From positions 32,001 through 96,000 of the forward strand of contig JBFLYH010000001.1 of the NCBI GenBank assembly GCA_040756875.1: DNA of 64,000 nt. Reading direction: 5' to 3'. A model generated the notes under the pieces. The model ran no database searches. It had not been told where the DNA came from and saw only the letters and a program-made list of their open reading frames with translations. Made by a program: the position numbers and the translations under genes. The stretch comes from a candidate division FCPU426 bacterium (GTDB lineage Bacteria > Oederibacteriota > JAAXVQ01 > JAUVAV01). This document shows positions 1-47,536 of this stretch, one piece after another; position 1 is the stretch's first letter, and each line of letters starts with the position of its first letter.

Positions 1-690
1 TGCGGACACGGAGTGGCGCACCGCCTCCTGGCCGAAGCCATCGAGGAGTCAGGCGCCCGCGAGCGCACGGTGGCCGTGGCGCCGGTGGGCTGCGCGGTCT
101 ACGGCTATGATTACTGGAATTTCGACACCACCGAAGCCGCGCACGGCCGCACGCCGGCCGTGGCCGCGGCCATCAAGCGCGTACTGCCGGACCGCCTGGT
201 GATCAGCTACCAGGGCGACGGCGACCTGGCTTCCATCGGGCTGGCTGAGATCATGCATGCGGCCAACCGGGGGGACCGGATCACGGTCATCTTCATCAAC
301 AACACCAACTACGGCATGACCGGCGGCCAGATGGCGCCCACCACGCTGGCCGGGCAGGTTACCACGACCACCCCCCTGGGGCGGGACAGCGCCACGACCG
401 GGCAGCCGCTGAAAGTGGCCGAACTCCTGGCGACCCTGCCCGGCGTCAAATACGCCGCGCGCGGGGCCCTGCACAAGCCCGGTTTGGTGCGCAAGGCCAA
501 ATCCCTGATCCAGAAAGCGCTGGCCGTGCAGGAAGCGGGCCTGGGTTTTTCGGTGGTCGAACTGGTGTCGCTGTGCCCCACCAACTGGGGCCTGACCACC
601 CTGCAGTCCGTGGAACTGGTGGAAAAACAGATCGTGCCGGTGTTTCCTCTGGGCGTTTTCAAGGACGAATCCGGCGCCAAGGCGGAATGA
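1..690 (+). CDS. 2-oxoacid:ferredoxin oxidoreductase beta (TPP-binding) subunit, 5'-truncated by the window edge
   Basis: Frame open from base 1 (CGHG...). Contains APVGC, AAHGR, the TPP motif YQGDGD...INNTNYGMTGGQMAPTT, and a C-terminal CPTNW. Confidence 0.92.
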   Translation, partial: CGHGVAHRLLAEAIEESGARERTVAVAPVGCAVYGYDYWNFDTTEAAHGRTPAVAAAIKRVLPDRLVISYQGDGDLASIGLAEIMHAANRGDRITVIFINNTNYGMTGGQMAPTTLAGQVTTTTPLGRDSATTGQPLKVAELLATLPGVKYAARGALHKPGLVRKAKSLIQKALAVQEAGLGFSVVELVSLCPTNWGLTTLQSVELVEKQIVPVFPLGVFKDESGAKAE

Positions 691-1241
691 GTATGCTGGA
701 ACAAATCATTATCGCGGGGTCCGGCGGCCAGGGGATCCAGTTCTGCGGACAACTGCTGGCCCGGGCCGCGGTCCGGCAGGGCCTGGAAGCCACCTACGTT
801 CCTTCGTACGGAGCCGAGCGCCGGGGCGGCCCCTCATTCTGCTCCGTGGTCGCGGCGGACCGTTCGATCTACGCCTCGCTGTTCAAGCATCCTGACATAT
901 TCCTGGCGCTGGACCAGCGGGCGCGCAACCAGTACGCTTCCAGCCTGCTGAACGCCGGCATCATGCTGGTGAACACGGATCTGGCCGGACAGCCCGCAAC
1001 CGGCGAACAGGCCCGGGTTATTGGCCTTTCGGCCTCGCGTCTGGCGGAAAAAATCAATTTCGAGCAGCCGCCCCTGAACCTGGTCATGCTCGGCGCCTAT
1101 CTGGGCCTGGACCGGGGCGTGAGCATTGAGGCGGTGCGGGCCGAATTGGAAGCCCGCTTTGCCGGCAAACCGGACGTGAAGCAACGCAACCTCCAAGCCC
1201 TTGACCTGGGCTGGGAAGAAGGCAGGAGCCAAAGCCGATGA
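687..1241 (+). CDS. 2-oxoacid:ferredoxin oxidoreductase gamma subunit
   Basis: IIIAGSGGQGI, PSYGAERRGG and NLVMLGA motifs; ATG at 687 overlaps the beta-subunit stop (ATGA). Confidence 0.9.
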   Translation: MSMLEQIIIAGSGGQGIQFCGQLLARAAVRQGLEATYVPSYGAERRGGPSFCSVVAADRSIYASLFKHPDIFLALDQRARNQYASSLLNAGIMLVNTDLAGQPATGEQARVIGLSASRLAEKINFEQPPLNLVMLGAYLGLDRGVSIEAVRAELEARFAGKPDVKQRNLQALDLGWEEGRSQSR

Positions 1242-1693
1242 TCAGGAAAGCCACGCTTCAGGACGTACCGGCGATCCACCGGTTGATCAACAGCCGGGCC
1301 AAACAGGGCCAAATGCTGGCGCGCTCCTTGTCCGAAATATACGAGAATATCCGCGACTATTTCGTGGCCATCGAGCGCAAAGCCGTGGTGGGCGTGGCCG
1401 GCCTGCACGTCAACTGGGCGGATTTGGCCGAGATCAAATCCGTGGCTGTCAATCCGGCTTATCAGGGAAAGGGAGTGGGCCAGGCTCTGGTCCAGGCCTG
1501 CCTGGAGGAAAGCCGGGTTATGGCCATTCCCAAGGTGTTCGTGCTGACTTACGTGCCGGGTTTTTTCCGGAAACAGGGGTTTAAAAAGATCAAACGCGAA
1601 GCCTTGCCGCACAAGATTTGGAGCGATTGCATCAAGTGCCCGCATTTCCCCAATTGCAACGAAGAGGCCATGATCATCGGCTTGCGCCGCTAG
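1238..1693 (+). CDS. argA: GNAT N-acetyltransferase, short ArgA-like (N-acetylglutamate synthase)
   Basis: MLARSLSEIYENIRDY, acetyl-CoA motif YQGKGVG, and C-terminal LPHKIWSDCIKC..FPNCNE typical of short ArgA-type GNATs. The gene symbol is tentative. Confidence 0.7.
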   Translation: MIRKATLQDVPAIHRLINSRAKQGQMLARSLSEIYENIRDYFVAIERKAVVGVAGLHVNWADLAEIKSVAVNPAYQGKGVGQALVQACLEESRVMAIPKVFVLTYVPGFFRKQGFKKIKREALPHKIWSDCIKCPHFPNCNEEAMIIGLRR

Positions 1694-1726
1694 CCCATCC
1701 GCCGCGTTCCGAGGAATCTGCCACCC

Positions 1727-2740
1727 ATGCCCGATGAAACGAATGCTGCTTTCACGCGGATAGCCGACCGGAGGGAAATCGGCCTTCAGCAGGTTGTCGA
1801 TACCCTTAAAATCGAAGATTGCCTGAAATCCCTGCAGGACGCGCATCAGTTGTCACCGCAGAAAACCGAGGAAATGAAGCTGATCGCCGGCGAGTTGGGC
1901 AAGAACGTCGTCAAGCACGGCGGCCAGGGCAAAATCATCATCACGCATTACGCCGCTGTCTTTCCCTGGGTGGAAATCATCACTGAAAACGTGGGCGCCC
2001 TGCCCGCGGACGCGATGAAAGACGGCGTTTCGACGCGGAACACCCTGGGCCTCGGCTTGGGCATGGTGTCACGGCTCTCCGACGCCTTTATCCGCGAGCA
2101 GGACGGGTATATTCTGCGCATGCGGGCGGTCAAGTACTGCCTGGATTTTCCCAACCGATCCGAAGTGGCGGTCCTCTCCTATCCCGTCATGATGCATGAA
2201 AACTGCAACGGCGACGCCTATTTTATCCACAAGGGGCGCGAGGACACGTTTTGCGTCATCGATGCCCTGGGCCACGGCGAGGAGGCGCACAAAAGCGCAG
2301 CCGCTGTTCTGGCGCACCTGAATTCCAACCCCGGGAAACCCGTTGATCACCTGGTGTACGGCGCGCACGAACTGTTAAAAGCGAAACACTTGCGCGGGGC
2401 GGCCATGGTGGTCGTACGGTTGGATTACGAGGCCCAAACGGTTCTGTTTGCGGGTTTGGGCGACGCGTTGGTGAAAATATTCCCTCCGAACGAAAGCGGC
2501 AGCCTAAGCCTGCTGCCGCAGGAGGGAATTGTCGGCGACGTCTGCCGGACGTTGGAAATTCAAAAGCAGGCGTTAGTGCCGGGCACGCTGATCGCCGTTT
2601 ATTCGGACGGCATTTCCAGCCGCCTGGCCATTCCCTGGGAACATCGCACCCAGCCTCCATTGCAATTGGTGAACGAACTGATGGCTAAATATGGCAAACT
2701 CCACGATGACCGGACTCTCTTGCTGGCTAAAATCCTCTAA
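1727..2740 (+). CDS. RsbT-like HATPase domain fused to a PP2C/SpoIIE phosphatase (RsbX-like)
   Basis: N-terminal ELGKNVVKHG...DGVSTRNTLGLGLG (GHKL fold). C-terminal NGD, IDALGHG, YSDGI and HDD PP2C metal motifs. Confidence 0.85.
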   Translation: MPDETNAAFTRIADRREIGLQQVVDTLKIEDCLKSLQDAHQLSPQKTEEMKLIAGELGKNVVKHGGQGKIIITHYAAVFPWVEIITENVGALPADAMKDGVSTRNTLGLGLGMVSRLSDAFIREQDGYILRMRAVKYCLDFPNRSEVAVLSYPVMMHENCNGDAYFIHKGREDTFCVIDALGHGEEAHKSAAAVLAHLNSNPGKPVDHLVYGAHELLKAKHLRGAAMVVVRLDYEAQTVLFAGLGDALVKIFPPNESGSLSLLPQEGIVGDVCRTLEIQKQALVPGTLIAVYSDGISSRLAIPWEHRTQPPLQLVNELMAKYGKLHDDRTLLLAKIL

Positions 2741-2894
2741 CCCTGTTTCAGTCTCGCTAAAAAAGCCTTGAATCTAAAGCAAACTAGTAAAATCACCGAA
2801 CCTAAAGTATAATGAAAACCACTCTTAATACGGCCTTTAGCAGGGGCTAACCCGCGGACAAGGCCGAAATCTTTTTATGGCCGCAGGAGGAACT

Positions 2895-3119
2895 ATGGCA
2901 ACTGTCCAAATGAACCTGACCAAGCTTCGCTGTCCACAGCCGATTTTGAAAATCACGGCCAAATCCATTGAAATGAAGCCGGGCGATGTTTTGGAAGCAA
3001 CCGCCGACTGCCCGACGTTTGAAAATGATGTCCGCACGTGGTGCGAAAAGGTCGGCAAGGCGCTTATTTTCCTGCAAAAGAACGCGGACGGCGTTTTTCA
3101 CTGCAAAATCCAGTTCTGA
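2895..3119 (+). CDS. tusA: TusA/SirA-family sulfur carrier protein
   Basis: 74 aa with LRCPQP (CPxP) and PGDVLE..ADCPTF..DVRTWC; AGGAGG RBS precedes the ATG at 2895. Confidence 0.88.
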   Translation: MATVQMNLTKLRCPQPILKITAKSIEMKPGDVLEATADCPTFENDVRTWCEKVGKALIFLQKNADGVFHCKIQF

Positions 3120-3206
3120 CCCCCTGGCGCACTCACGGCGCGGACCGCTTTAGGCGGCGCCCGGCGGGCGTGGATAAAAACGCACCGAAACCAAAGGAGA
3201 TAAACG

Positions 3207-3944
3207 ATGACCGCTCACCCGATTTCCCCGGAGCTGTTGAAAGAATTGGAAGCCCACTTCAATGCGCTGCAGAAACTGGAACGCGGTGACGCTCAAATCC
3301 AGGCCCGCGAAGATTCCTCCGTGGAGATTGTTTCGCGCATGGGCGGCATGATCAATCAGCTGGCGAACATGTCCCGGGAATCGATCAAGCTGTCCATGGA
3401 GATGTCCCTGGCCATCGCCCAATTTCTGGACGTGCTCAACCAAATGGCGGCCGGCAACCTGAAGGCCCGTGCGCCGATTGATTTTGAAACCGAGGTCCTG
3501 GCGGCCTTGGGCAAAGGCATCAACACGGCCATTGCCAAGGTCCAGGAACGGACTCTGCTTGAGGAGCTCTTGAAGGAATTGTCCACGCCGGTTCTCTATG
3601 CGTGGGAAGGCGTGATCGTTATGCCCCTGATCGGCACCCTGACCAGCGACCGCGCGCAGGAAGCCATGGAAAAGCTGCTGAAAAGCATCACCCAGCATCA
3701 TGCCCGCGTCGCCCTGATCGACATCACCGGCGTGCCGGTCATCGATTCCATGGTCGCCCAGCACCTGATCCGGACGATCAAGGCCGTCAAGATTCTGGGG
3801 AGCGATGCCATCATCACCGGAATTTCAGCCGAAGTGGCCTCCATTTTGGTGAAGATCGGCATTGAAGTGGAGCAATTCATGACCCGCAGCAGCCTGCATG
3901 AGGGGTTGAAGCAGGCGATTAAAATGGTCGGAGCGAGCCAATAA
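3207..3944 (+). CDS. rsbR: Stressosome RsbR-like protein (HAMP-like N-terminus plus STAS domain)
   Basis: STAS signature ELSTPVL..WEGVIVMPLIGTL...IDITGVPVIDS...LG..AIITGI; AAGGAG RBS. Confidence 0.9.
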   Translation: MTAHPISPELLKELEAHFNALQKLERGDAQIQAREDSSVEIVSRMGGMINQLANMSRESIKLSMEMSLAIAQFLDVLNQMAAGNLKARAPIDFETEVLAALGKGINTAIAKVQERTLLEELLKELSTPVLYAWEGVIVMPLIGTLTSDRAQEAMEKLLKSITQHHARVALIDITGVPVIDSMVAQHLIRTIKAVKILGSDAIITGISAEVASILVKIGIEVEQFMTRSSLHEGLKQAIKMVGASQ

Positions 3945-4301
3945 ATGAAGGTCCCGGTTCCCCTCATCAAAATCGGCCAAGTCGTGCTGGCGCCCATTGA
4001 GATCGAGCTGACGGACGAGATGGCCGAAGAACTCCACTTGGCGATACTCAAGAAAATCGAACTGACCCACGCCAGGGGATTGGTCATCGACGTCTCCCTC
4101 GTCGAAGTCATTGATTCCTACTTTGCCCGGATCCTGATCAACATCGGCCGGGCGGCGCATTGTTTGAATTGCATGACCGTGGTGGTCGGCATCACGCCGG
4201 AGGTGGCCTTCACCCTCACTCAGATGGGATTGACGTGGCGGGGCGTGCGCACTGCGCTGACGGTGGAGGAGGCTATTTCCATGGTTCAAGCCCATGGATG
4301 A
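3945..4301 (+). CDS. rsbS: Stressosome RsbS (stand-alone STAS domain)
   Basis: VPLIKIG...GLVIDVSLVEVIDSYFAR...VVVGITPEVAFTLTQMGL; starts immediately after the rsbR stop. Confidence 0.9.
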   Translation: MKVPVPLIKIGQVVLAPIEIELTDEMAEELHLAILKKIELTHARGLVIDVSLVEVIDSYFARILINIGRAAHCLNCMTVVVGITPEVAFTLTQMGLTWRGVRTALTVEEAISMVQAHG

Positions 4302-4713
4302 CAGCTTTGTCATGCACATCGCCAGTGAGCAGCATATTCTGGCGGTGCGCCATGCGATCCGCGAACTGGTGAACCAGCGGCTGCAGTTCAATTCCCTGGA
4401 GCGGATGCACGTCATCACCGCCGTATCGGAACTGGTCCGCAACATCTACAACTATGCCAAGGAAGGCGACGTCGAAGCCAAGATCGTCCTGTCGCCTGCG
4501 GGAAAAAAGGGGATCCGGATCAAATTTGCCGATCACGGCCCGGGCATTCTGGATATCGAGAAAGCCATGCAGCCAAAAAGCATCCGGGAATTCGGCAAGG
4601 GCATGGGCATCGGCCTGAGCGGCAGCAAAAAACTGGCGGATGAGTTTTCGATCGAATCCCAGCCCGGGCTGGGAACGACCATCATCTGGACCCGCTGGGA
4701 GCGGTACGGCTGA
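4294..4713 (+). CDS. rsbT: Stressosome Ser/Thr kinase RsbT
   Basis: TAVSELVRNIYNYA, DHGPGI, GMGIGLSGSKKLADEFSIESQPGLGT; overlaps the end of rsbS. Confidence 0.92.
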   Translation: MDDSFVMHIASEQHILAVRHAIRELVNQRLQFNSLERMHVITAVSELVRNIYNYAKEGDVEAKIVLSPAGKKGIRIKFADHGPGILDIEKAMQPKSIREFGKGMGIGLSGSKKLADEFSIESQPGLGTTIIWTRWERYG

Positions 4714-4768
4714 AGGGCGGGGAAGGGGTGGCGGGCCTGTCCCGACGACATTTCTCTGGGAGTCATGA

Positions 4769-6718
4769 ATGCCCGGTGATGCACTCAAGATGGGCTTGAT
4801 GCTCTGCAAATGCGGGAACACGATTTTTCAGGCCGTCGATTTCGACGCTGTCGTGGCCTGGGCCCGGAAACGCCACGATTTGCAATTCGTTCTTTTTCAT
4901 GACCTGCTTTGTTCCGCGGAAGGCCGAAGCTACACGCTGGAAGTCCTCCAACAGGAAAAACCCGACCGCTTGATCATCGCCGCCTGCTCGCCCAGGGCCC
5001 ACGAAGCCACCTTCCGGGCAGTGGCGGAAAAGGCCGGCTTGAATCTGGCCGCCATCCACATGGCCAACATCCGCGAGCACTGCGCCTGGGTGACCACGGA
5101 CAAAGCCGAGGCCACTCGCAAAGCCATCGCCCTGATCCGGGCGGCGGTCGAACGCGCCCGGCGGCACGAGCCCCTGCAGCGCCGGAGCGTGGAATGCAAC
5201 ACAGACCTGGTCGTAATCGGGGGCGGCATTGCCGGCATGGAAGCCGCCTTGCTGGCCTCCCAGGCCGGAAGGAAAGTGACCCTCGTCGAGCGGGACATCT
5301 CCCTGGGCGGCCGGCTGATGCAAACCGAGGAATTGGCCCCGAACATGGAATGCGCCCCCTGCCTGCTGTCGCCGCGGCTCTTTAAAATCAAGGATGATCC
5401 GAACATCACCATTCTGACCCATTCCGAGGTCACCGGAGTTCTGGGGTTTCACGGCAATTTCACGGTCAAAATCCGCAAGCGCGCCCGGTACGTGAACCAG
5501 AACTGCGTGGGTTGTGAAGCCTGCTTTCCGGTTTGCCCGGTGGAGGTGAAAAGCGGGTTCCACCTGGGCTTGGGCACCCGCAAGGCTGTTTATACGCTCT
5601 TCCCAGGCTCGGTTCCCGCCGCGGCGGCCATTGACAGGCAAGCCTGTCTGCATTTCAAGGACGGCTCGTGCCGGGCCTGCGCCGAAGCCTGTTCCTTCGG
5701 GGCCGTGGATTTTGAGGATAAAGACGAGGAAAGGGCGATATCCGCCGGCGCCGTAATTCTGGCCACGGGTTTTACGCCCTTCGATCCTTCGCCGCTCGCC
5801 CGCCTGGGCTATGGGAAGATACCGGAAGTTTACAGCCTGCCCGAATTCGAACGGATCTCAAATTCCAACGGCCCCTCTCAGGGCACGATCCGGCGCCGGG
5901 ACGGAAAAATCCCGGCTTCGGTGGCTGTGATCCACTGCGTTGGATCGCTGCAGGATACGGCCTTGCCCTACTGCTCGGGCATTTGCTGCCTGCTGGCCGC
6001 CAAGGTCGGGGAAGTCGTGCGCAAGCAGAACCCGAAGGCCAAGGTGTTCAATATCCACGACCGCCTGGTGTTTGCCGGCCAGGCGGCGCAGGAATTTTAC
6101 ACCGAGCAGGTCAAGGCCGGCACCCAATTCCTGGCGACCAGGGATTTGGCCAAGGTAACGCTGGTTCGGAAAAAAGGCGCCGTGGAAATACGAATGCCCG
6201 GCCAAAAACCCTTTGGCGTCGACATGGTGGTATTGGCCACTGGCGCCGGCCCGGCCGGTGATGCGGAAACCCTGGGGACATTGCTTCAGATCGAAAGCGG
6301 GCCCGCCGGTTTCTTCAAACCCGACAGTCACTTCCTGCATTCCATCGGCACCAGCCTGGACGGCATCTACCAGGCCGGCGGATGCGCAGGCCCGTGCCTG
6401 GCTGACCAAGCCGTGGTGCAGGCTCAGGCTGCGGCCGGAGAAGCTGTCAGCCAGTTGGTGCCTGGCAAAAAGATCGAGTTGGAGATTCAGACTTCGATCA
6501 TCGATCCCGATTTGTGCAAAGGCTGCCGGCTGTGCGAAGCGTTGTGCCCTTTTTCGGCCATCGCCTACCGCCCGGAACTCAGGGTGTGCGAAATCAACGA
6601 GGCCGTTTGCCGCGGTTGCGGCACTTGTGTGGCAGGCTGCCCCAACCTGGCCATCGGCGCCAGGCATTTTCAAGACGCGCAATTGCAGGCGGAATTGGAA
6701 GGGCTGCTCAATGACTGA
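4769..6718 (+). CDS. hdrA: Heterodisulfide reductase subunit A-like flavoprotein (HdrA)
   Basis: N-terminal CKCG..LCS..ACSP..NIREHC; FAD motif VIGGGIAG; inserted ferredoxin CVGCEACFPVCP / CRACAEAC; HCVGS..YCSGICC; C-terminal 2x[4Fe-4S] CKGCRLCEALCP and CRGCGTCVAGCP. Confidence 0.93.
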   Translation: MPGDALKMGLMLCKCGNTIFQAVDFDAVVAWARKRHDLQFVLFHDLLCSAEGRSYTLEVLQQEKPDRLIIAACSPRAHEATFRAVAEKAGLNLAAIHMANIREHCAWVTTDKAEATRKAIALIRAAVERARRHEPLQRRSVECNTDLVVIGGGIAGMEAALLASQAGRKVTLVERDISLGGRLMQTEELAPNMECAPCLLSPRLFKIKDDPNITILTHSEVTGVLGFHGNFTVKIRKRARYVNQNCVGCEACFPVCPVEVKSGFHLGLGTRKAVYTLFPGSVPAAAAIDRQACLHFKDGSCRACAEACSFGAVDFEDKDEERAISAGAVILATGFTPFDPSPLARLGYGKIPEVYSLPEFERISNSNGPSQGTIRRRDGKIPASVAVIHCVGSLQDTALPYCSGICCLLAAKVGEVVRKQNPKAKVFNIHDRLVFAGQAAQEFYTEQVKAGTQFLATRDLAKVTLVRKKGAVEIRMPGQKPFGVDMVVLATGAGPAGDAETLGTLLQIESGPAGFFKPDSHFLHSIGTSLDGIYQAGGCAGPCLADQAVVQAQAAAGEAVSQLVPGKKIELEIQTSIIDPDLCKGCRLCEALCPFSAIAYRPELRVCEINEAVCRGCGTCVAGCPNLAIGARHFQDAQLQAELEGLLND

Positions 6719-7145
6719 TTTCGAACCGCGAATTGTGGCTTTTGTCTGCAACTGGTGCGCCTATGGGGGCGCAGACCAGGCTGGCGGACAAAAACTCGCG
6801 TATCCCGCCAATGTCCAACTGGTGCGCGTGATGTGCAGCGGCCGGGTGTCTCCCCGGTTGGTCCTGGAAGCTTTTCGGATGGGAGCAGACGGGGTGATGG
6901 TGCTGGGCTGTCATCCTGGAGACTGCCATTACCGAAATGGGAACCTTAAAGCCGAGAAGCGCTTTAAAACCTTTAAAAAAGTGCTGGCCCAGCTGGGCAT
7001 TGAAGAAGCGCGCTGTCTGCGGGATTGGGTGGCGGCCTCGGAGGGGAAGAAGTTCCAGGAACTGGCTGTCGCCATGACGCGAACGATAAAGCGCCTGGGC
7101 CCCTTGCGCTTAACGGCGAAACCCGGTCCGGGAGGCGGGACATGA
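6711..7145 (+). CDS. mvhD: MvhD/FlpD-type [2Fe-2S] hydrogenase iron-sulfur subunit
   Basis: FEPRIVAFVCNWCAYGGAD, RVMCSGRV, GADGV..GCHPGDCHY..GN, WVAASEG; overlaps hdrA by 8 bp. Confidence 0.93.
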   Translation: MTDFEPRIVAFVCNWCAYGGADQAGGQKLAYPANVQLVRVMCSGRVSPRLVLEAFRMGADGVMVLGCHPGDCHYRNGNLKAEKRFKTFKKVLAQLGIEEARCLRDWVAASEGKKFQELAVAMTRTIKRLGPLRLTAKPGPGGGT

Positions 7146-9040
7146 AGAAAAAGGCCGCTCCCGGCATTATCCTAAAACAAAGCAGACCCGCCAAGCAATC
7201 CGCAGGCAGCGATTATTCCGCGGGTACAGGGCCGGAAGTGTCCTTGCTGCTCAATGGCGAGGAAATATCCGTGGCCCGCGATACGACGATATACGATGCG
7301 GCTGTACAAAACGGCGCGTGTTTCGCCCGCCCGGAGGACGTGGCCGAAACCTCTTGGATTCACAACGGCGATTGCTATCTGCTTAGCATTGCGGAAGTCA
7401 ACCAGGTTTTGATGCCGGTGGCGGCGATGAAAAAGAGGCCAGTGGCACAGGGCATGCGCATCAACACCGAATCCCCTAAAATAAAGGCCAGCCTGCGCGA
7501 CCGGGTCAAGCAATTGCATGAACGGCAGGAATGCGCCGTTGTCAGGCAAATCCAGGAATTGTGCGCAGCCGAGGCGGAATCCGCCGGATTTGTCTCGGCG
7601 CCGGAAAGGGAAAAGTGGGGTTTCGCAGACCGCCTGACCGGGCCGTCCATTTTGCATGAGCCGAACAAATGCCTGCGCTGCGAAGCGTGCGTCAACGCCT
7701 GCAAAGACCTCCAGGGAGTGGACGCCCTGCGCAAGGATCCTGCGTTGGGGATCGTGGTGGACGAAACCAAATGCGTGCGTTGCGGGCAGTGCATTCTGGC
7801 TTGCCCCATGGGCTCGCCGGAGAACCTGGCCGCCTATCTTGACCTGATGGGATGCCATATGTGCCCGTTTTCACGGCCCTTGGGCGCAATGAGGGAGCAG
7901 GACGATACGGCCAGGGTGTTGCAAGCGCTGAATGATCCGGATCAATACGTGGTCGTGCAATTTGCCCCCTCGGTCAGGGCCACCCTGGGCGAGGCCTTCG
8001 GCATCGCGCCGGGCGCTTTAGTCACCAACCAATTGTACGCCGCTTTGCGCCGGGCCGGTTTTGACCGGATCTGGGACACCAACTTCGCCGCTGACCTCAC
8101 GATCATGGAGGAAGGCTCCGAACTGATCGCGCGCCTTCAGCGGCAAGGGCCTCTGCCGCAACTGACCTCCTGCTCGCCGGGCTGGGTCAATTACATCGAA
8201 ACCTTCTATCCGGAGTTGCTGCCGCTGGTTTCCTCCGCCAAATCACCCCAGCAAATGTTCGGCGTGGCGGCAAAAACCTATGCCGCGGAAAAATTGCGCG
8301 TCGCTCCGGGGAAAATGACCGTGGTATCCATTATGCCGTGCACGGCTAAAAAATACGAAGCGGCCCGCAAAGAAATGAACGCAGCCTGGGAATACTGGCG
8401 CCGGAAGGGGCTGAACCAAGACCCCTTTCAGGACGTGGACGTTGTACTGACGACACGCGAGGCGGCCAAGCTTTTAAAAATACTGAACATCGATGTGTCA
8501 AAAATGCCAGAGGAAGGCCCTGATCCGCTTTTAGGCGCGTATTCCGGCGCAGCACCCATTTTCGGACGGACCGGAGGTGTCATGGAGGCTGCCTTGCGGA
8601 CGGCCTACGAGCTGCTGACCAATACCCCTCTGGGTGAGCTGGAGTTCTCAGAGCTGGGAACCGTGGAAGGCATAAAAAGGGGCCGGGTCCTGATCAACGG
8701 GTCGGAAATCAAAGTCGCTGTGGCCCACGGGCTGGCCAATGCCCGGCAGGTGCTGGAATCCATCAAGCAGAAGGGCGAATTTTCCCGCTACCATTTCATC
8801 GAGATCATGTGCTGCCCTGGCGGGTGCGTGGGAGGGGGAGGTCAGATTGTTTCCACCAACCTGCCCCGGATCGTCAAACGAACCCTTGGCATCAATCAGG
8901 ATGACCGCCAGCGTGAAATAAGAAAATCCCATCAAAACAAGGAAATCCAGGCGCTATACCGGGATTTCCTCGGACAGCCTTTAAGCCGGCTGGCGCATGA
9001 ACTGCTGCATACCAAGTATTCCGCCCGTCCACCCAAGTAA
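7142..9040 (+). CDS. hydA: Group A [FeFe]-hydrogenase catalytic subunit
   Basis: APSVR, FAADLTIMEE, L1 TSCSPGW, KSPQQM, L2 MPCTAKKYE, FGRTGGVMEAA, L3 EIMCCPGGCVGGGGQ, and the fused small-subunit tail SHQN..LY...AHELLHTKY. GGAGG RBS; ATGA overlap with mvhD. Confidence 0.93.
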   Translation: MKKKAAPGIILKQSRPAKQSAGSDYSAGTGPEVSLLLNGEEISVARDTTIYDAAVQNGACFARPEDVAETSWIHNGDCYLLSIAEVNQVLMPVAAMKKRPVAQGMRINTESPKIKASLRDRVKQLHERQECAVVRQIQELCAAEAESAGFVSAPEREKWGFADRLTGPSILHEPNKCLRCEACVNACKDLQGVDALRKDPALGIVVDETKCVRCGQCILACPMGSPENLAAYLDLMGCHMCPFSRPLGAMREQDDTARVLQALNDPDQYVVVQFAPSVRATLGEAFGIAPGALVTNQLYAALRRAGFDRIWDTNFAADLTIMEEGSELIARLQRQGPLPQLTSCSPGWVNYIETFYPELLPLVSSAKSPQQMFGVAAKTYAAEKLRVAPGKMTVVSIMPCTAKKYEAARKEMNAAWEYWRRKGLNQDPFQDVDVVLTTREAAKLLKILNIDVSKMPEEGPDPLLGAYSGAAPIFGRTGGVMEAALRTAYELLTNTPLGELEFSELGTVEGIKRGRVLINGSEIKVAVAHGLANARQVLESIKQKGEFSRYHFIEIMCCPGGCVGGGGQIVSTNLPRIVKRTLGINQDDRQREIRKSHQNKEIQALYRDFLGQPLSRLAHELLHTKYSARPPK

Positions 9041-9044
9041 GTGC

Positions 9045-9072
9045 TTGACTCGACCGGAAAAATCCGTATATT
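9045..9072 (+). promoter_or_regulatory. Putative sigma70 promoter of the tRNA pair
   Basis: TTGACT-16 nt-TATATT upstream of tRNA-Val. Confidence 0.5.
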
Positions 9073-9154
9073 AAATGGACTTTGATCAGCAGTGGCGGTG
9101 AATTTAACGATCATCCCTGCTTTTCAGAACGTTTTTTAAGTGCATGCAAGTCAT

Positions 9155-9231
9155 GGGCGGATAGCTCAGTTGGTTAGAGCGCCTGCCTTACAAGCAGGAG
9201 GTCACAGGTTCGAACCCTGTTTCGCCCACCA
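9155..9231 (+). tRNA. tRNA-Val(TAC)
   Basis: GGGCGGA acceptor stem, TAGCTCAGTTGGTTAGAGC D-arm, anticodon stem CCTGC-ctTACaa-GCAGG, GGTTCGAACC T-arm, encoded CCA. Confidence 0.97.
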
Positions 9232-9412
9232 GCGTTTCGCCCTGGCGGGCGAAACGCAGAGCAGGCGAGCAGTTGAACAGTTGAACAGGAGATTAAAGCG
9301 AGCCTGCGGTCACCTGCTCTGCTGTTCCACTGGTCGATTTTTCACATGATCGTTTTAATGAATTTAAGCAGTTGAACAGCTGGACAGGTGAGCTGATTCG
9401 CTGCGTTTATAT

Positions 9413-10535: not shown

Positions 10536-13500
10536 ATGAATTTATTTATACGGAAATGGTATTTAACCGGACTTACTATCCTGCTGTCCGGCGGATTGAT
10601 GATTGGGGGCGCTGCCGGGTTGGGATTCAAGGCACAAGGGCAGGACTGGCGGCAGGCTAAACGGTTGTTCGCGTGGCAGGCAAGCAAAGCATCGGTGAAA
10701 ACGAACATCGCCATAAACTCCCAGGCGGCTAAAGCAGGGGCAAATGAAAATTGGCTCAGCCAAGTTATAAGGCGGATCGAAACCCAGGAATATACGGCGT
10801 TGAAAAACGCGGAAGGCCAATGGCAGGCGCCGAATAGGAAACAGCGGTTGCGGACGGTTTTTGCGAGCGACGGCATTGAAGTGGCGCCGCAGTTCATTTC
10901 CCGGGGAACCGCCGGACAACTGTTGCCGGGCAAAGGACCTAAGACCGTTCAGGTTGCTCAGACACAAAGCGCTCAATGGACATGGCGATGGCAGACCCAG
11001 GCAATCGGGAGGACGGGCGCTATGCGCTCTGTGCCGGACATCGCGCCAAAAGCCGAAGGCAACCGGGTGGAGTATGCGCGTGAGGATTTCGTCGAATGGT
11101 ATGAGAACAAACCCGAAGGCGTGGAACAGGGATTTGTCATTCATCGGAAACCGGAAATCAATCGGGGCGCTCAACCGGACACCGATACAGTGGGCATCCA
11201 ATCCCAGCCCATCCTGGGCTTGATCCCCCGTTTATCCCCGGACCAACAGCGCATCGAATTTCTAGATCAACATCAGGCCAAAGTTCTGGAATACGGCAAA
11301 CTGCTGGTTCGGGATGCGCGCGGAAAGGTTCTGCGCTCCGAACTTCGGCTGGAAAACAACCGAATCATGCTGGCTTATGATGATCACGCTGCTGCCTATC
11401 CTGTGCATATTGATCCCTTGCTGACAACCCCGGCCTGGACTGCTGACGGGGACCAGAACGGCGCCTATTTCGCCTGGTCGGTGGCGAGCGCCGGGGATGT
11501 GAACAACGACGGGTATGGCGATGTGATCGTAGGTGCGTCCCATTACAGCAATGGCGAGACGTATGAAGGCCGCGCGTTTGTGTATCATGGGAGCGCCTCG
11601 GGACTGGCCGCAACCCCGGCGTGGACCACTGAGGGCAACCTGCTTGGTGCCTATTTCGGCCATTCGGTGGCGAGTGCGGGTGATGTCAATGGCGACGGAT
11701 ACAGTGATGTGGTTGTAGGCGCTTTTAATTATAATAACGGGGAAGTGGGCGAAGGCCGCGTGTTTGTTTATCACGGAAGCGCCTCGGGACTGGCCGCAAC
11801 TCCGGCCTGGACCGCCGAGAGCAACCAGGCCGGTGCGCATTTCGGCTATTCAGTAGCGAGTGCCGGGGATGTGAACGGCGATGGGTACGCGGATGTGATC
11901 GTGGGCGCCCGCTATTATACCAATGGCGAGTCGCGGGAAGGCCGCGCCTATGTGTATCATGGGAGCGCCTCGGGACTGGCCGCAACCCCGGCGTGGACCG
12001 GCGAGAGCAATCAAGTCGATGGGTATTTCGGCTATTCGGTGGCGAGCGCCGGAGATGTGAACGGCGACGGATACAGCGATGTGATTGTGGGCGCTTACAA
12101 CTGCTATAGCGGCGAGGCGGGGGAAGGCCGCGCATTTGTCTATCATGGGAGCGCTTCCGGCTTGGCCGCAACCCCGGCCTGGACTGCGGAGAGCAATCAG
12201 GTTAATGCTTGTTTTGGCTATTCCGTGGCGGGCGCGGGGGATGTGGATGGCGACGGATACAGCGATGTGATTGTGGGCGCCATCGCGTATGACAATGTAG
12301 AGGCGAATGAGGGCTGCGCGTTCGTGTATCACGGGAGCGCCTCGGGTCTGGGCGCAACCCCGGCGTGGACCGCCGAAAGCAATCAAAACAGTGCGGAGTT
12401 CGGCTATTCCGTGGCGGGCGCAGGTGATGTGAATGGCGACGGATACGCTGATGTGATCGTGGGCGCTTGTTTATATGACAACGGCGACATGGACGAAGGC
12501 CGCGCCTATGTGTATCTTGGCGGCGCTTCAGGTTTGGCTGCAACTCCAACTTGGACTGATGAGGGAAATCAATACAACGCCCGGTTCGGCTATTCGGCGT
12601 CAAGCGCCGGGGATGTGAACGGCGACGGGTACTCGGACGTGATGGTGGGCGCTTATTTATATGACAATGGCGTGCCTGATTTGGGCCGCGTATTTGTCTA
12701 TCACGGGGGCGCTTCAGGGCTCGCGGCTGCCCCGGCCTGGACAGCAGAGAGCGATCAGGCAAACGCCAACTTTGGCTGGATGGTGTCAAGCGCCGGGGAC
12801 GTGAACGGCGACGGTTACAATGACGTGATCGTAGGCGCGCGCGGATACGATGCCATGGGCAGAGTTTATGTTTATCATGGCAGCGCCAGCGGACCCTCCC
12901 TGGCACCGGACTGGACGGCCGCCGGGGATCAGGCAGGCGCTTATTTCGGCAATGCGGCGGCGGCGGCCGGGGATGTGAACGGCGACGGGTACGGTGATGT
13001 GATTATCAGCGCCCATTGGTACACCCACGGCGAGACCAATGAGGGCATGGTTTATGTGTATCACGGGAGCGCAACCGGACTCTCGGCCACGCCCGACTGG
13101 ACCGCGGAAGGCGACCAGGCGAGCGCTTATTTCGGCACCAGCCTGGCGGGCGCAGGGGATGTGAATGGCGACGGGTATGCCGACGTGATTATCGGAGCAC
13201 CCAACTATGACCATGGCGAAGCGGATGAAGGCCAGGTGTTTGTCTATTGCGGAAGCGCAAGCGGACTTGGCAGCACTCCGGCCTGGACTGCTGAAAGCGA
13301 CCAAGCCATTGCCCAGATGGGCTCGTGCGTGGCTTCGGCTGGAGACGTGAACGGTGATGGGTTCAGCGATGTAATTGCAGGCGCGCCTTTTTACAGCAAT
13401 GGCGAGTCGCGGGAAGGCCGCGCGTTTGTTTATCATGGGTACGCGGGTGGACTTTACGTCACCCCGGCTTGGACCACGGAGAGCAACCAGGTGAATGCCT

Positions 13501-15176
13501 ATTTGGGGGCCTGTGCCAGTGCCGGAGATGTGAACGGCGACGGGTACGGCGATGTGGTGGTGGGCGCTTATTTTTATGATAATGGCGAGGTGAACGAAGG
13601 CAGCGCCTACGTGTTTCACGGCAGCGCCTCGGGGCTGGGAAGCACCCCGGTTTGGACCGCGGAGAGCAATCAGGCGGATGCCCGTTTCGGCCAATCCGTA
13701 GCCAGCGCCGGTGACGTGAATGGCGATAGGTATGACGACGTGATGATAGGTGCACCGAATTTTAGCGACGGTGAGACGAATGAAGGCCGCGCGTTTATAT
13801 ATTATGGCGGCGCGACCGGGCTTGCGGGGGCATCGGCCTGGATGACCGGGGGCAACCAGGCGAATGCTCGTTTTGGTTGGGTGGCGACTGGCGCCGGAGA
13901 TGTCAATGGTGACGGCTACGGCGACACTATTGTGGGCGCGCCTTATTTTTCCAACAGTGAAAGCAATGAAGGCCGGGCGTTTGTGTATCTCGGCAATAGT
14001 GGTACAGCGCAAGCAGTCAGGCTTCGCCAGGCAAGCGCTGATGGATTACGGTTGATCGGACCCGCTGGAATGGCTTCGACAGATGCCGGCAACACATCCT
14101 TCCGGGTGCGTATTTTCAGCCGAGCGAGCCAGGGCCGGAGCAGGGCGAAGCTGCAACTGCAAACTGGGGAACCAGGACAGCCATTAATGTCCGGGACCTT
14201 GACCGCCCAGGCAGGATACACGGATCTGGGAGTGGCGGGTACGGATCTGGAATTCCCGTTAAGTGGCCTTGATTCTCTGCAGGCTTATCATTGGCAGGCC
14301 AGGCTGTTGTATGATCCTGCCCAAGCTTCCAATGGAAATCTGCACGGCCCGTGGCACAACCTGTCGTGGGGCGGATTATGCGGCAATTCGGACATGCGCA
14401 CCGGACCTGTTCCTGCGCCAACCGCCACACCGACCATCACTTGCACGGCGACCCAAACCTGGACTGTGACACCGACTGGGACGCAAACACCGACGGTGAC
14501 GATGACTCCGACCGGGACAGAAACCGGAACCGCGACACCGACATTGACGGCCACGCCGACCGTGACTTTGACTGCGACGCACACGTTGACGGCAACGGGA
14601 AGTGAAACCTCAACTGCGACACCAACGCCGACTGCCACGCCGACAGTCACATTGACCCGGACCGGAACAGAGACTTTAACCGCGACGCCAACCGCCAGCG
14701 CGACGTCCAGCATTACCCCGACGGGCACACTGTCGACCACACTAACGGTCACGCCGACAACAACCACGACGGCAAATGAAACACCCGTGCTTTCGAGAAC
14801 GCCGACTTCGACGGCAACAAACAGTCCGGTCATTGTTGCCACGCCCACAATTACCGCCGGCATGACGGGCACAAGTTCGCCTACCCTGACGGCAAGTCCG
14901 GTGCTGGCTGGCCCAGGCAATAAAAAAGTATTGGTTTATCCCAGTCCGGCCAGTGATAAGATGCGATTTGTAATGAATGTGGAGGAGGCCGGTCGGGTTA
15001 TGATAATGATTTACAATTTAAATGGCGAGAGGGTAGCTGCCCTAAACACTGATTTATACTCCGGCCGGGAAACCATCACATGGGACTGTTCCGGATTGGC
15101 GCCGGGCATTTACCTGGCGCGGTTGCTGCTGGAAGGAAAGGAAATCGGAAAAGCCAAAGTGGCGGTGGTGCGCTAA
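10536..15176 (+). CDS. Large secreted FG-GAP (integrin-alpha beta-propeller) repeat protein with Thr/Pro stalk and C-terminal sorting-like domain
   Basis: Signal-like N-terminus; 14 copies of FG.SVA.AGDVNGDGY.D.IVGA...GR..VY.G with ~62-aa period; (T-x)n tract; C-terminal VYPSPA...WDC..LAPGIY...KVAVVR. Confidence 0.9.
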   Translation: MNLFIRKWYLTGLTILLSGGLMIGGAAGLGFKAQGQDWRQAKRLFAWQASKASVKTNIAINSQAAKAGANENWLSQVIRRIETQEYTALKNAEGQWQAPNRKQRLRTVFASDGIEVAPQFISRGTAGQLLPGKGPKTVQVAQTQSAQWTWRWQTQAIGRTGAMRSVPDIAPKAEGNRVEYAREDFVEWYENKPEGVEQGFVIHRKPEINRGAQPDTDTVGIQSQPILGLIPRLSPDQQRIEFLDQHQAKVLEYGKLLVRDARGKVLRSELRLENNRIMLAYDDHAAAYPVHIDPLLTTPAWTADGDQNGAYFAWSVASAGDVNNDGYGDVIVGASHYSNGETYEGRAFVYHGSASGLAATPAWTTEGNLLGAYFGHSVASAGDVNGDGYSDVVVGAFNYNNGEVGEGRVFVYHGSASGLAATPAWTAESNQAGAHFGYSVASAGDVNGDGYADVIVGARYYTNGESREGRAYVYHGSASGLAATPAWTGESNQVDGYFGYSVASAGDVNGDGYSDVIVGAYNCYSGEAGEGRAFVYHGSASGLAATPAWTAESNQVNACFGYSVAGAGDVDGDGYSDVIVGAIAYDNVEANEGCAFVYHGSASGLGATPAWTAESNQNSAEFGYSVAGAGDVNGDGYADVIVGACLYDNGDMDEGRAYVYLGGASGLAATPTWTDEGNQYNARFGYSASSAGDVNGDGYSDVMVGAYLYDNGVPDLGRVFVYHGGASGLAAAPAWTAESDQANANFGWMVSSAGDVNGDGYNDVIVGARGYDAMGRVYVYHGSASGPSLAPDWTAAGDQAGAYFGNAAAAAGDVNGDGYGDVIISAHWYTHGETNEGMVYVYHGSATGLSATPDWTAEGDQASAYFGTSLAGAGDVNGDGYADVIIGAPNYDHGEADEGQVFVYCGSASGLGSTPAWTAESDQAIAQMGSCVASAGDVNGDGFSDVIAGAPFYSNGESREGRAFVYHGYAGGLYVTPAWTTESNQVNAYLGACASAGDVNGDGYGDVVVGAYFYDNGEVNEGSAYVFHGSASGLGSTPVWTAESNQADARFGQSVASAGDVNGDRYDDVMIGAPNFSDGETNEGRAFIYYGGATGLAGASAWMTGGNQANARFGWVATGAGDVNGDGYGDTIVGAPYFSNSESNEGRAFVYLGNSGTAQAVRLRQASADGLRLIGPAGMASTDAGNTSFRVRIFSRASQGRSRAKLQLQTGEPGQPLMSGTLTAQAGYTDLGVAGTDLEFPLSGLDSLQAYHWQARLLYDPAQASNGNLHGPWHNLSWGGLCGNSDMRTGPVPAPTATPTITCTATQTWTVTPTGTQTPTVTMTPTGTETGTATPTLTATPTVTLTATHTLTATGSETSTATPTPTATPTVTLTRTGTETLTATPTASATSSITPTGTLSTTLTVTPTTTTTANETPVLSRTPTSTATNSPVIVATPTITAGMTGTSSPTLTASPVLAGPGNKKVLVYPSPASDKMRFVMNVEEAGRVMIMIYNLNGERVAALNTDLYSGRETITWDCSGLAPGIYLARLLLEGKEIGKAKVAVVR
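11430..13995 (+). repeat. Intragenic tandem repeat array (~186-bp units) encoding FG-GAP blades
   Basis: Near-identical DNA units, e.g. GTGTATCATGGGAGCGCCTCGGGACTGGCCGCAACCCCGGCGTGGACC recurring near 11582 and 11954. Boundaries are approximate. Confidence 0.85.
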
Positions 15177-43100: not shown

Positions 43101-46100
43101 ATGCAGGAAATCCTCCTTTCCCAGCTGCTGGACCGCATTTTTATCCAAAATCTGATCGACGCCTGCTACCGCACCACCGGCATGCCCCTACAGGTGTTGG
43201 ATGCCCGCGATGGTTCGGTTTTTGCCAGCGCCGGCATGCCGACTTCGGATCGCAACGGGTCCGGCCGCCATTTAATGGCCGCGGAATTGCGCCCGCAGGT
43301 TGCCGCACTGGAGTCAATCCGTTACGAATGCCGCCAGGGAATATGGGAAGCGGAACTGCCCCTGATGGTTCGGGACCGCCTGCTGGCCGTGGTTCATTCC
43401 GGCGGGTTTGTCATGAAAGATTCCGCCTTTCTCGACACCCCGGACGCATTCTCCGGCCCGCCGAACCAGCTTCCGCTGTTTGATTCCCAGACGGCGGACG
43501 CCGCGCTGGAATGCCACCGCACCGTGGCGAGGTTGCTCGTCCGGATGGCCGAAAACGACCGGCCGCCAACCGCGCCCGCCCAGACGAAAGCCGCCGAATC
43601 CGCCCGTCCAGACCAGGAATCGCTGCTTCACCTCCGCTACTTCGAAAACATGGACCACATCAACCGGATCATCCAGCAAACGAGCGATCCGGAACAAATG
43701 ATGCGCGACCTGCTCGATGCCGTACTGGCGATTTTCAACTGCGACCGGGCGTTTCTCGTTTATCCTTGCGAACCGACCGCCACCACCTGGACTTCGCCGA
43801 TGGAACGCACGCGGCCTGAGTATCCCGGCGTGCTGCAGCTGGGACTTGAAGTTCCGATGGATCCGGAAGTATTGCGCGTTTACCGGACCGTGAGAGCGAC
43901 ACCCGACCCGGTGACATTCGGCCCCGGGTCCGAACTCCCCTTGCCGCAGGGCACCACCGAACAATTCCATATTCTATCCATGATGAGCATGGCCGTTTAC
44001 CCCAAGAACGATCAGCCGTACATGTTCGGGATACACCAGTGCTCTTATGCTCGGGTGTGGAACGAAGAGGAAAAACGCCTCATGCGGGGGATCGGCGAGC
44101 GGTTGGGCGATTCATTGACCAGCATGCAAGCGTATCGCCATTTGCAGGAAAGCGAGCAACGCTACCGGGAAATATTCGAGAACATCACCAACGCCGTCGT
44201 GCTTTATGAAGCCTCCCCGGAGGGCCGGTTTAAAATACTGGATGTCAATCCCACCGGTGAGCGCATTCTGGGATTGCGCCGGACCGTCTTAGTCGGGAAG
44301 TACCTGGACGAAATGGAGGGCGAGGTCTTCCGATCCCAGTTTGAGAAAAACCGCCTCTGTCTAAAAGGCAAAGCGCCGATCAGCTACGACCGCCAAATCG
44401 ATACGGCCACGGGCCAGTGGCATATTTATACGACGCTGTTGCCCATGGCCGATGCGGCGGGCGTGATCCGGCGGATCATGGAAATCAACCGCGACATTAC
44501 CGAACAAACGCGCGCCGAAAAATCCCTGCGCCGCCTGAACCGGGAACTCCATGCCATCAGCAATTGCATCCAGGTCCTCATGCGGGCCGAAGACGAGGAC
44601 ATCCTGCTCAATGATATCTGCCGCATTATTTGCGAGGAAGCGGGATACCGCCTGGCCTGGGTGGGATATGCCGAGCCTGACGCCGGCAAAACCATCCGTC
44701 CCAAAGCCTGGGCCGGGTTTGAAGACGGTTATCTGGCTACGGTCCGCCCCAATTGGTCCGAGGACAGCGAACGCGGACGCGGCCCTTCGGGAATTGCGGT
44801 GCGCTCCGGCGAAAAGTGCTTCATCCAGGACATAACCACCGATGCGCGGATGGCCCCCTGGAAAGAAAACGCCGTGAAACGCGGTTACCATTCCATCATT
44901 GCCTTGCCGTTGAAAGACGAAACCAACGCCCCTTTCGGCGTGCTGGTGATTTACTCCGGTGAAACCGACGCTTTCACGGGGGACGAGGTCCGGCTGCTGG
45001 AGGAGCTGGCCGCTGACCTGGCTTTCGGCATCTGCAGCTTGCGCGCCCGCGAACGGCTCAAGCACGCGGAACGCGAGCAACTGGCGCATCTTCGGTACTT
45101 TGAATGCATGGATCAAATCAATCATGCCATCCGCCAAGCCAGCGACGTTGAAAAAATGGTGGGCGAGGTCCTCGATATGCTGTTGGCGAATTTTGATTGC
45201 GACCGGGCTTTTTTAATCTATCCCTGCGATCCGGAGGCTGATTCCTGGAGCGTGCCCATCGAACGCACCCGCCCCGAGTACCCGGGAGCCAACGCCTTGC
45301 AGGCCGTGGTGCCCATGACCGCGGAAACGCAAACCCTGTTGAGGATCGTGCGTTCGGAGGACGGGCCCGTGGCTTTCGGCCAGGACTCGCTGCATCCTTT
45401 GCCGCCGATAACTTCCAAACGGTTCAATATCCAGTCCCTGGTCGCCATGGCCGTGTACCCCAAGCAGGACAAACCTTATATGTTCGGCCTGCACCAGTGT
45501 TCTTATCCCCGTGTGTGGTCCGAAGAGGAGAAGTGGCTCCTGCGCGGGATCGGAGAGCGTTTGGGCGACGCGTTGACCAGTTTGCAGGCCCACCACCAAC
45601 TGCAGGAGAGCGAACGCCGCTACCGGGAAATATTCGAAAACACCACCAATGCAGTCATGCTCTACGAAGTCACTCCGGAAGGGCGCTTGCGTGTCTTGGA
45701 TATCAATCCTGCTTTTCAGCAAATAACGGGATACAAAAGCGAAGACTTGGATGGAAGATATATGGACGAATTCGGCTGCGACACACATTACCGGGAGTTT
45801 CTGGAAAAAAACCGGGTGTGTCTGGAAAGCAAAACCCCTGTCAGTTATCAACACCAGCTGAAAACGCCGACCGGGGAATGGCATTTCCAGACCACCCTGG
45901 TCCCGGTCAGCAATGCTGCCGGTTCGATTTACCGCATCGTAAACATCAGCCGTAATATCACTGAACAAATCCTGGCTGAAGCGGCTCTGAGGGATTCGGA
46001 GCAGCGGCTGTCCGAAATTTTTAATTTCCTGCCGGACGCCACCTTCGCCATTGACCGCCAAGGCCGCGTCATCGCGTGGAACAAAGCCATCGAGGAGATG

Positions 46101-47513: not shown

Positions 47514-47536
47514 ACTGCCGTAAGGAGGGTGCGATC

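Follow-up and report, generated by a model that had tools for sequence, protein, structure and literature searches.

The window considered here is a stretch of 64,000 nucleotides (G000:C1:32001-96000) from the genome of a candidate division FCPU426 bacterium, which is 3.22 Mb in size, assembled in 7 contigs and 100% complete. Close to its start three genes on the forward strand encode the parts of a putative hydrogenase complex. The first, hdrA (4769..6718), encodes a flavin adenine dinucleotide (FAD) flavoprotein of 649 aa with all [4Fe-4S] cysteine sets. This is followed by mvhD (6711..7145, with its ATG at 6711), which encodes a [2Fe-2S] adaptor subunit of 144 aa, and by hydA (7142..9040, with its ATG at 7142 and a GGAGG upstream), which encodes a group A [FeFe] hydrogenase of 632 aa. 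The stop of hdrA and the start of mvhD overlap by 8 bp, and mvhD and hydA by 4 bp (ATGA). A preliminary description of this DNA had named a full-length HdrA with PEFER and CCLLAAK segments, MvhD and a group A HydA joined by these same overlaps, and the open reading frames (ORFs), the Pfam matches, the alignment to a solved HdrA and the NCBIfam model TIGR02512 confirm each point.

HdrA matches Pyr_redox_2 and several Fer4 families in Pfam. Residues 7-649 align to residues 13-655 of the solved methanogen HdrA 8rvu (E 2.1e-133), and a second solved structure, 5odc, also gives a full-length match (E 1.9e-126). The alignment spans the N-terminal, thioredoxin-reductase-like, inserted and C-terminal ferredoxin domains of the solved protein. 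The segments LPEFER (residues 357-362) and CCLLAAK (406-412) are both present, and E359, E361, R362 and K412 are identical to the aligned residues of 8rvu, the Glu and Lys being at positions reportedly near the FAD. An alignment of 14 HdrAs whose genes are linked to tusA retains 26 cysteine columns in all 14, and every cluster cysteine is present in the window protein. HdrA scores below the curated NCBIfam cut-offs, with 552.9 against 1100 for the HdrA2 model and 452.5 against 1400 for the HdrA model.

MvhD matches the Pfam family FlpD with 170.4 bits (cut-off 22.3), and C13, C16, C42, C67 and C72 are invariant across 41 sequences. With its gene adjoining those of both a hydrogenase and HdrA, it is identified as an FlpD/MvhD protein, although it falls below the NCBIfam VhuD cut-off (118.3 against 215). 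In Methanosarcina an MvhD domain is fused to HdrA to form HdrA2, which works with F420H2 and HdrB2C2. The HdrA2 model covers the window HdrA (1-640) and MvhD (647-774), which thus resemble a split form of it; unlike HdrA2, both remain below the curated cut-off (MvhD scoring 162.2) and the donor is a hydrogenase.

HydA matches Fe_hyd_lg_C (295.2 bits) and Fe_hyd_SSU (72.8 bits) and passes TIGR02512, '[FeFe] hydrogenase, group A' (452.7 against a cut-off of 405.95). It contains the sequences TSCSPGW, MPCTAKKYE and EIMCCPGGCVGGGGQ, which we take to be the H-cluster motifs. The closest solved chains are those of bifurcating HydABC enzymes, HydA1 7q4v_A (E 1.7e-117) and 8a6t_A (E 1.7e-116), followed by CpI. 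The protein begins with a cysteine-poor N-terminal domain, continues with 2x[4Fe-4S] motifs and a CxxC insert (C238, C241; window 7853-7864), and ends with the H-cluster domain. In contrast to HydABC, it has no HydB/HydC partner, its N-terminal sites for a [2Fe-2S] and a His-ligated cluster are degenerate and the CxxC insert is additional. The N-terminal ferredoxin-like domain lacks most of its cysteines throughout the clade to which this HydA belongs, and all 48 clade rows have the CxxC insert, whereas none of nine group A outgroups does. The insert might provide ligands for an additional cluster or metal, jointly with C131 and, where the N-terminal domain exists, with C78.

Sensory [FeFe] hydrogenases (group C, HydS) have an altered proton-path cysteine, and the serine that replaces the second cysteine in TSCSPGW was considered as a sign of sensing or inactivity. 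This was rejected: a catalytic enzyme of known structure, HydA1 7q4v_A, has the motif, as do ordinary group A enzymes, so that it is uninformative on either point. TSCSPGW is shared with 7q4v_A, with the genome's own HydABC-type HydA and with three further members of the nine outgroups; in an alignment of 33 clade members TSCSP occurs in 28 and TSCCP in five. The C-terminal PAS domain by which a group C enzyme would be recognised is absent from the Pfam scan of HydA.

The HydA clade and its gene neighbourhoods

A genome scan with general H-cluster peptides retained 80 loci, only five of which were clade members (at least 53% identity); of the remaining 75 (37-47%), seven were taken as outgroups and the others not used further. 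A clade-specific 120-residue alignment was therefore built for a metagenome scan, from which 80 loci were kept, 36 at 46% identity or above being used and 44 dropped. The resulting set contains 41 clade loci (5 genome and 36 metagenome). Relatives at 50-60% identity are widespread, with source names that include Planctomycetes, Omnitrophica, Thermodesulfatator, Zixibacteria and Bathyarchaeota, among others. In the HydA tree the window protein groups with P0002 (support 97) and the HydA of locus L105 (93), within a 48-row clade (100 in the Shimodaira-Hasegawa-like approximate likelihood ratio test, SH-aLRT) that stands apart from nine ordinary group A sequences.

HdrA and/or MvhD are encoded on the same piece in 12 of the 41 loci, in at least four gene orders, some of the 12 being near-copies (L105/L106, L111/L112). 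L105 and L106 carry tusA-hdrA-mvhD-hydA. The order hydA-[hdrA::mvhD]-hdrC-hdrB occurs at L111 and L112, CCG-hydA-hdrA at L124 (CCG being the HdrB-type family), and hdrA-hdrC-hdrB-[mvhD::hydA] at L129, with the same order at L130 and L131, where the contigs end inside hydA. Fusions of MvhD to HydA in single ORFs are observed at L024, L125, L127, L129 and L135 (those of L125 and L135 from abutting matches), and three more are found among the 120 protein matches listed (P0075, P0081 and P0105). The fusion P0075 is predicted to fold as one body, with a predicted local distance difference test (pLDDT) score of 89.6 and a predicted template modelling (pTM) score of 0.92. No triple fusion of HdrA, MvhD and HydA was found, none of 119 long matches (1107-3160 aa) containing FlpD.

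On the strength of these gene arrangements it is very probable that HydA is wired through MvhD to HdrA. Many HydAs of this clade are solitary or have only hydGEF next to them (L122, L123, L126), as would be expected if HydA were a free-standing ferredoxin hydrogenase that adjoins hdrA and mvhD by chance. Against this, stop and start codons overlap in the window, the linkage recurs, MvhD::HydA fusions exist, and FlpD (MvhD) is encoded elsewhere in all four of the genomes examined for it that have a solitary HydA of the clade, which makes chance adjacency extremely improbable.

Three of the clade loci have further features. At L127 (2456-17174) a canonical hdrA-hdrC-hdrB-mvhD-mvhG-mvhA set is directly followed by an MvhD::HydA fusion, hycI and a full rnf cluster, apparently one Hdr with two alternative hydrogenase modules. 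L024 (2553-14574) encodes in turn a GntR protein, a GlcD-like oxidase, a CCG/Fer4 protein, a GcvH-like protein, a second CCG/Fer4 protein, HdrA, the MvhD::HydA fusion, LplA and two radical SAM proteins. The same glcD-CCG-gcvH-CCG-hdrA-[mvhD::hydA]-lplA order is found at L125 and, on a fragment of 3.8 kb truncated at either end, at L135; this cluster presumably resembles the lipoate-binding-protein Hdr systems, or could relate to H-cluster maturation via the H-protein. At L108 a divergent YeeE/YedE-type sulfur transport gene (3309-3875) adjoins a solitary clade HydA.

HdrBC, related [NiFe] loci and the proposed origin of the module

Genome-wide family searches place every match to CCG (1), Complex1_51K (2) and NiFeSe_Hases (1) outside the window, and Pfam scans of selected window ORFs (11 + 37, a selection that does not include the protein at 10536-15176) detect no hdrBC, mvhAG or hydBC. 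The single CCG match is weak (32.9 bits) and lies approximately 300 kb away, so that the window has no HdrABC set. Both Complex1_51K genes adjoin the two other HydAs of the genome, which lie beside NuoF/NuoE-like genes and are of the HydABC type; the window HydA lacks the NuoF-like HydB and NuoE-like HydC neighbours that mark this bifurcating type (group A3). The sole [NiFe] large subunit is part of an Mbh/Ech-like membrane complex. HydE, HydF and HydG are encoded in the genome, with scores of 311.9, 538 and 505.2 bits that all exceed the curated cut-offs.

The genome also contains a second Hdr cluster (G000:C1:331952-339182; L101:7953-15183). It encodes DsrE2, TusA, MvhD, a 922-aa GltD/HdrA-like (HdrL-like) flavoprotein, an HdrA-like protein of 578 aa, and HdrC-like and HdrB-like proteins. 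This is another pairing of TusA with MvhD/Hdr, and its FlpD and that described above are the only two in the genome.

Among 99 genomes searched in the phylum, the source genome included, no other carries a HydA of the window type. The closest foreign match in the phylum has 45-52% identity (E 1.1e-141). G032, a genome of the same genus, reaches only 43% and has no MvhD match at E <=1e-20. MvhD orthologues of 65-76% identity are present in five kin genomes (G019 and G022-G025), at loci (L243-L247) with the order hdrA-mvhD-mvhG-mvhA-tusA and an HdrA that is 52-58% identical to that of the window. HdrB/C has no match within these five loci (10-16-kb stretches), and a whole-genome search for CCG finds none in G019 (100% complete), G024 or G025 and one distant match each in G022 and G023. 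Of 401 Spirochaetota genomes sampled, 11 encode a close MvhD. Among the seven loci retrieved from these, six are a [NiFe] cluster with adjacent tusA and no hdrBC (L284-L289), while the seventh ends in mvhA at a contig edge. These bacterial clusters have the same HdrA clade, MvhD and three-cysteine TusA as the window; they differ in that they carry MvhGA with HycI/Hyp genes, where the window has the [FeFe] HydA and a set of RsbRST and PP2C genes.

In the HdrA tree a single clade (SH-aLRT 100, branch length 0.74) unites the 14 TusA-linked HdrAs and separates them from the HdrBC-linked proteins, and the window HdrA is nested in the [NiFe]-linked group of its kin (SH-aLRT 100). Because HdrA is placed among [NiFe]-linked proteins and HydA in a separate [FeFe] clade, the most economical explanation is that mvhGA, in an HdrBC-less, TusA-linked module, would have given way to an MvhD-compatible [FeFe] HydA.

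Part of what the preliminary description had proposed is supported by these data. The claim that an [FeFe] enzyme takes the place of a [NiFe] hydrogenase as the partner of HdrA-MvhD holds, as kin share the hdrA-mvhD backbone with mvhGA and the HydA clade includes MvhD::HydA fusions. hdrB/hdrC, mvhA/mvhG and hydB/hydC are indeed missing from the window, and the maturase genes for which it advised a search are all present. The absence of hdrBC is upheld for the locus itself and for the five kin loci, although not for the whole genome, which has one weak HdrC/HdrB-like pair elsewhere. Its suggestion that HdrA replaces HydBC is not borne out by the HdrA tree, according to which it is MvhAG that HydA replaced in an existing module.

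TusA, the island and the signalling genes

A TusA-family sulfur carrier of a three-cysteine subtype is encoded at 2877..3119 (forward strand). It matches the Pfam family with 54.5 bits (cut-off 28.6) and has the CPxP cysteine C19 in CPQP, which identifies it as a TusA, and it scores below the NCBIfam TusA equivalog cut-off (31.7 against 78). Its other cysteines are C45 (ADC) and C56 (WC). In the alignment C19 is found in 12 of 13 linked sequences (13 of 14 rows in all), C45 in 12 of 13 and C56 in all 13. Neither C45 nor C56 occurs in the genome's other TusA, and these two residues mark the linked subtype.

The tusA gene is adjacent to the module in all five kin loci, in six of the seven Spirochaetota loci and at L105. 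It remains linked to hdrA-mvhD even where the gene order or the type of hydrogenase differs, which argues for a role with HdrA/MvhD and not in [NiFe] maturation. It is possible, and tentatively suggested by this conservation, that TusA is a direct redox partner of the module. The preliminary description had noted TusA in the same cluster as a candidate acceptor; recurrent adjacency now lends a partner role comparative support, although in the window itself three signalling genes separate tusA from hdrA. The three-subunit complex that it envisaged does not match the conserved unit, which is of four genes including tusA and is embedded here in an island of eight.

This island (1673..9154) is a block of 7.5 kb with all genes on the same strand, located between a GNAT gene and the promoter of a tRNA-Val gene (9155..9231, forward strand) that forms its right border, as judged from the tRNA call and the comparison with G032. 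It opens with an RsbW-like kinase domain (HATPase_c_2, 30.9 bits) fused to a SpoIIE/PP2C phosphatase (28.2 bits) at 1727..2740. After tusA come an RsbR-like protein with a C-terminal STAS domain (3207..3944, 48.4 bits), an RsbS-like single-STAS protein (3945..4301, 36 bits) and an RsbT-like serine kinase (4294..4713, HATPase_c_2 and HATPase_c), all on the forward strand, before hdrA-mvhD-hydA. The domains and order of these three genes fit a putative RsbRST stressosome module; neither RsbV nor a sigma factor is found among the eight genes of the island.

The island is absent from G032 (100% complete). Window positions 1-1672 match G032:C3:355348-353677 (82%), and the match to tRNA-Val (window 9155-9236) begins only about 80 bp further on in that genome. 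The flanks are therefore contiguous in G032 (82-95% identity, with breakpoints at window positions 1672 and 9155), and 1673-9154 is a block present here and absent there. Direct repeats of at least 8 bp and an integrase were looked for at its ends and none was seen.

Sensory [FeFe] hydrogenases described so far occur together with PP2C phosphatases, kinases or methyl-accepting chemotaxis proteins (MCPs). It could accordingly be proposed that the module is an H2/redox sensor, in which the redox state of HdrA/TusA would feed into RsbRST/PP2C here and into chemotaxis proteins in relatives. The eight genes of the island are co-oriented, with gaps of no more than 136 bp, and present or absent as one block, and the module has MCP or Che genes as neighbours in four of the five kin loci ([NiFe]), at L105 ([FeFe]) and at L286. 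However, the four kin are related and so are not independent cases, Che genes occur in only one of the seven Spirochaetota loci (L286), and an RsbRST homologue is found at none of the other clade, kin or Spirochaetota loci. HydA, moreover, has no PAS domain and shares its TSCSPGW motif with catalytic enzymes. Sensing is thus a minority explanation and is considered distinctly unlikely.

The chemotaxis genes beside the module encode short membrane-anchored MCPs or CheB/CheR/CheX/CheD (L243:4236-5762, L244:5054-6163, L247:5592-6779, L246:239-4779, L105:44-1799 and L286:7510-9844). Signalling genes are abundant across the whole window, which includes, at 43101-47980, genes for a GAF/multi-PAS histidine kinase of 1470 aa and, after it, a receiver protein. 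Just past the tRNA genes, positions 10536-15176 encode a 1546-aa protein with many GDVNGDGY-motif repeats and a Thr/Pro-rich tail, which has a weak DNA match elsewhere in G032.

Proposed mechanism and relation to known systems

It is judged somewhat probable that hdrA-mvhD-hydA encodes a soluble complex, an [FeFe] version of a conserved HdrBC-less, TusA-linked HdrA-MvhD-hydrogenase module, that would work as follows. H2 would be split at the H-cluster of HydA, and electrons would pass from the iron-sulfur clusters of HydA to the [2Fe-2S] cluster of MvhD and on to the clusters and FAD of HdrA. From the flavin, one branch would lead through the ferredoxin-like domains of HdrA to ferredoxin, a plausible partner because these domains are retained. 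The other would end at a thiol-based acceptor, a persulfide or disulfide, on the three-cysteine TusA, TusA-bound sulfur or a TusA disulfide being the best available candidate for the second partner. The physical association of the subunits, the direction of electron flow, the bifurcation and the role of TusA as acceptor are all deduced from genes and alignments and are put forward as a working model.

Within this scheme true bifurcation is conceivable and falls somewhat short of being probable. The same complex might instead operate without it, as a reversible ferredoxin:H+ oxidoreductase or as an H2:TusA-sulfur reductase similar to flavoprotein persulfide reductases, in which the HdrA flavin would give two electrons to one acceptor. 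There is no high-potential HdrBC branch here or in kin, genes for a 2-oxoacid:ferredoxin oxidoreductase adjoin the island, and two HydABC-type hydrogenases are already available for confurcation. Nevertheless, HdrA keeps all its cluster cysteines and the residues aligned to the FAD neighbours, which would be costly for a simple wire, and a non-bifurcating complex is regarded as unlikely.

Several observations weigh against the TusA-linked, HdrBC-less module as described. The 14 TusA-linked HdrAs have no clade-specific cysteine able to serve a thiol substrate. The linked TusA of G023 (L245:11331-11546) has lost both the CPxP cysteine C19 and the ADC cysteine C45, and in G022 and G023 tusA lies between mvhA and hypA, so that a maturation role is possible there. 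HdrA and MvhD are not encoded on the same piece in 29 of the 41 HydA clade loci. Some of these pieces are too short to tell; the long ones (L115, L118, L120, L123 and L126) show only hydG-hydE-hydF or unrelated genes, so this type of HydA also works elsewhere or with partners encoded at a distance. CCG genes are present in 10 of the 12 linked loci, and the HdrBC-less form is therefore the minority among [FeFe] versions. Finally, the genome does contain an HdrC/HdrB-like pair (C1:337816-339182).

The last two points would also be expected if HdrA-MvhD-HydA borrowed this pair, the only one of the genome, to form a conventional HdrABC with an [FeFe] donor. The pair, however, is part of its own complete DsrE2-TusA-MvhD-HdrL-like-HdrA-HdrC-HdrB cluster and includes the weakly scoring CCG protein, and kin G019 has the same type of HdrA and no CCG protein at all. 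With the TusA-linked HdrAs also separated from the HdrBC-linked ones by a long branch, such borrowing appears very unlikely.

The proposed HydA-MvhD-HdrA module has its closest characterized parallel in MvhAGD-HdrABC of methanogens (5odc, 8rvu), which bifurcates electrons from H2 to heterodisulfide and ferredoxin. Both have the same full-length HdrA, cysteine sets and Glu/Arg/Lys residues, and in both MvhD is an adaptor between hydrogenase and HdrA. The window differs in having an [FeFe] HydA instead of the [NiFe] MvhAG, no HdrB or HdrC, a linked tusA and a bacterial host. The archaeal hybrid hydrogenases of groups F and G are similar in that an [FeFe] subunit is recruited to group 3 [NiFe] parts (Greening et al. 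2024, PMC11216029). As described in the sections covered, these are HyhS::HydA fusions, of HydA with the [NiFe] small subunit, that work with HydBCD (PMC11216029), whereas the window uses MvhD, a name that does not occur in the same portion of that text.

Sections of a 2018 review of multimeric [FeFe] hydrogenases associate Hdr only with [NiFe] enzymes (PMC6288185), and a list of 12 bifurcating enzymes, in the part of the article that gives it, contains HydABC and the [NiFe] Mvh-Hdr only (PMC6085437). In the article sections covered, with supplements outside the scope and Appel et al. 2021 and Pereira et al. 2011 not included, no [FeFe]-MvhD-HdrA unit or tusA linkage is described. Nor was a paper on the bacterial hdrA-mvhD-mvhG-mvhA-tusA cluster type found in the literature within that scope. 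The novelty of the [FeFe]-MvhD-HdrA unit is thus probable, although not certain.

A broader proposal, more speculative and rather unlikely to be right in all its parts, is that MvhD is a universal plug for [NiFe] and [FeFe] hydrogenases into HdrA, and that the HdrBC-less, TusA-linked family, which spans at least two bacterial phyla, is an unrecognised H2-driven system. Its high-potential partner would be a TusA persulfide or disulfide, the redox state of which may be read by neighbouring chemotaxis or partner-switching proteins. For practical purposes, expression, assays and cryo-electron microscopy could conveniently start from the naturally occurring MvhD::HydA fusions and from the four-gene unit, which is compact, and the coupling of fast [FeFe] catalysts to ferredoxin reduction would be of biotechnological interest. 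If the proposed module is correct, the bifurcating HdrA core is not bound to [NiFe] hydrogenases, and the small adaptor MvhD also allows docking of an [FeFe] enzyme that is unrelated to these. TusA would then be a candidate answer to the question of how HdrA functions in the numerous bacteria without HdrBC.

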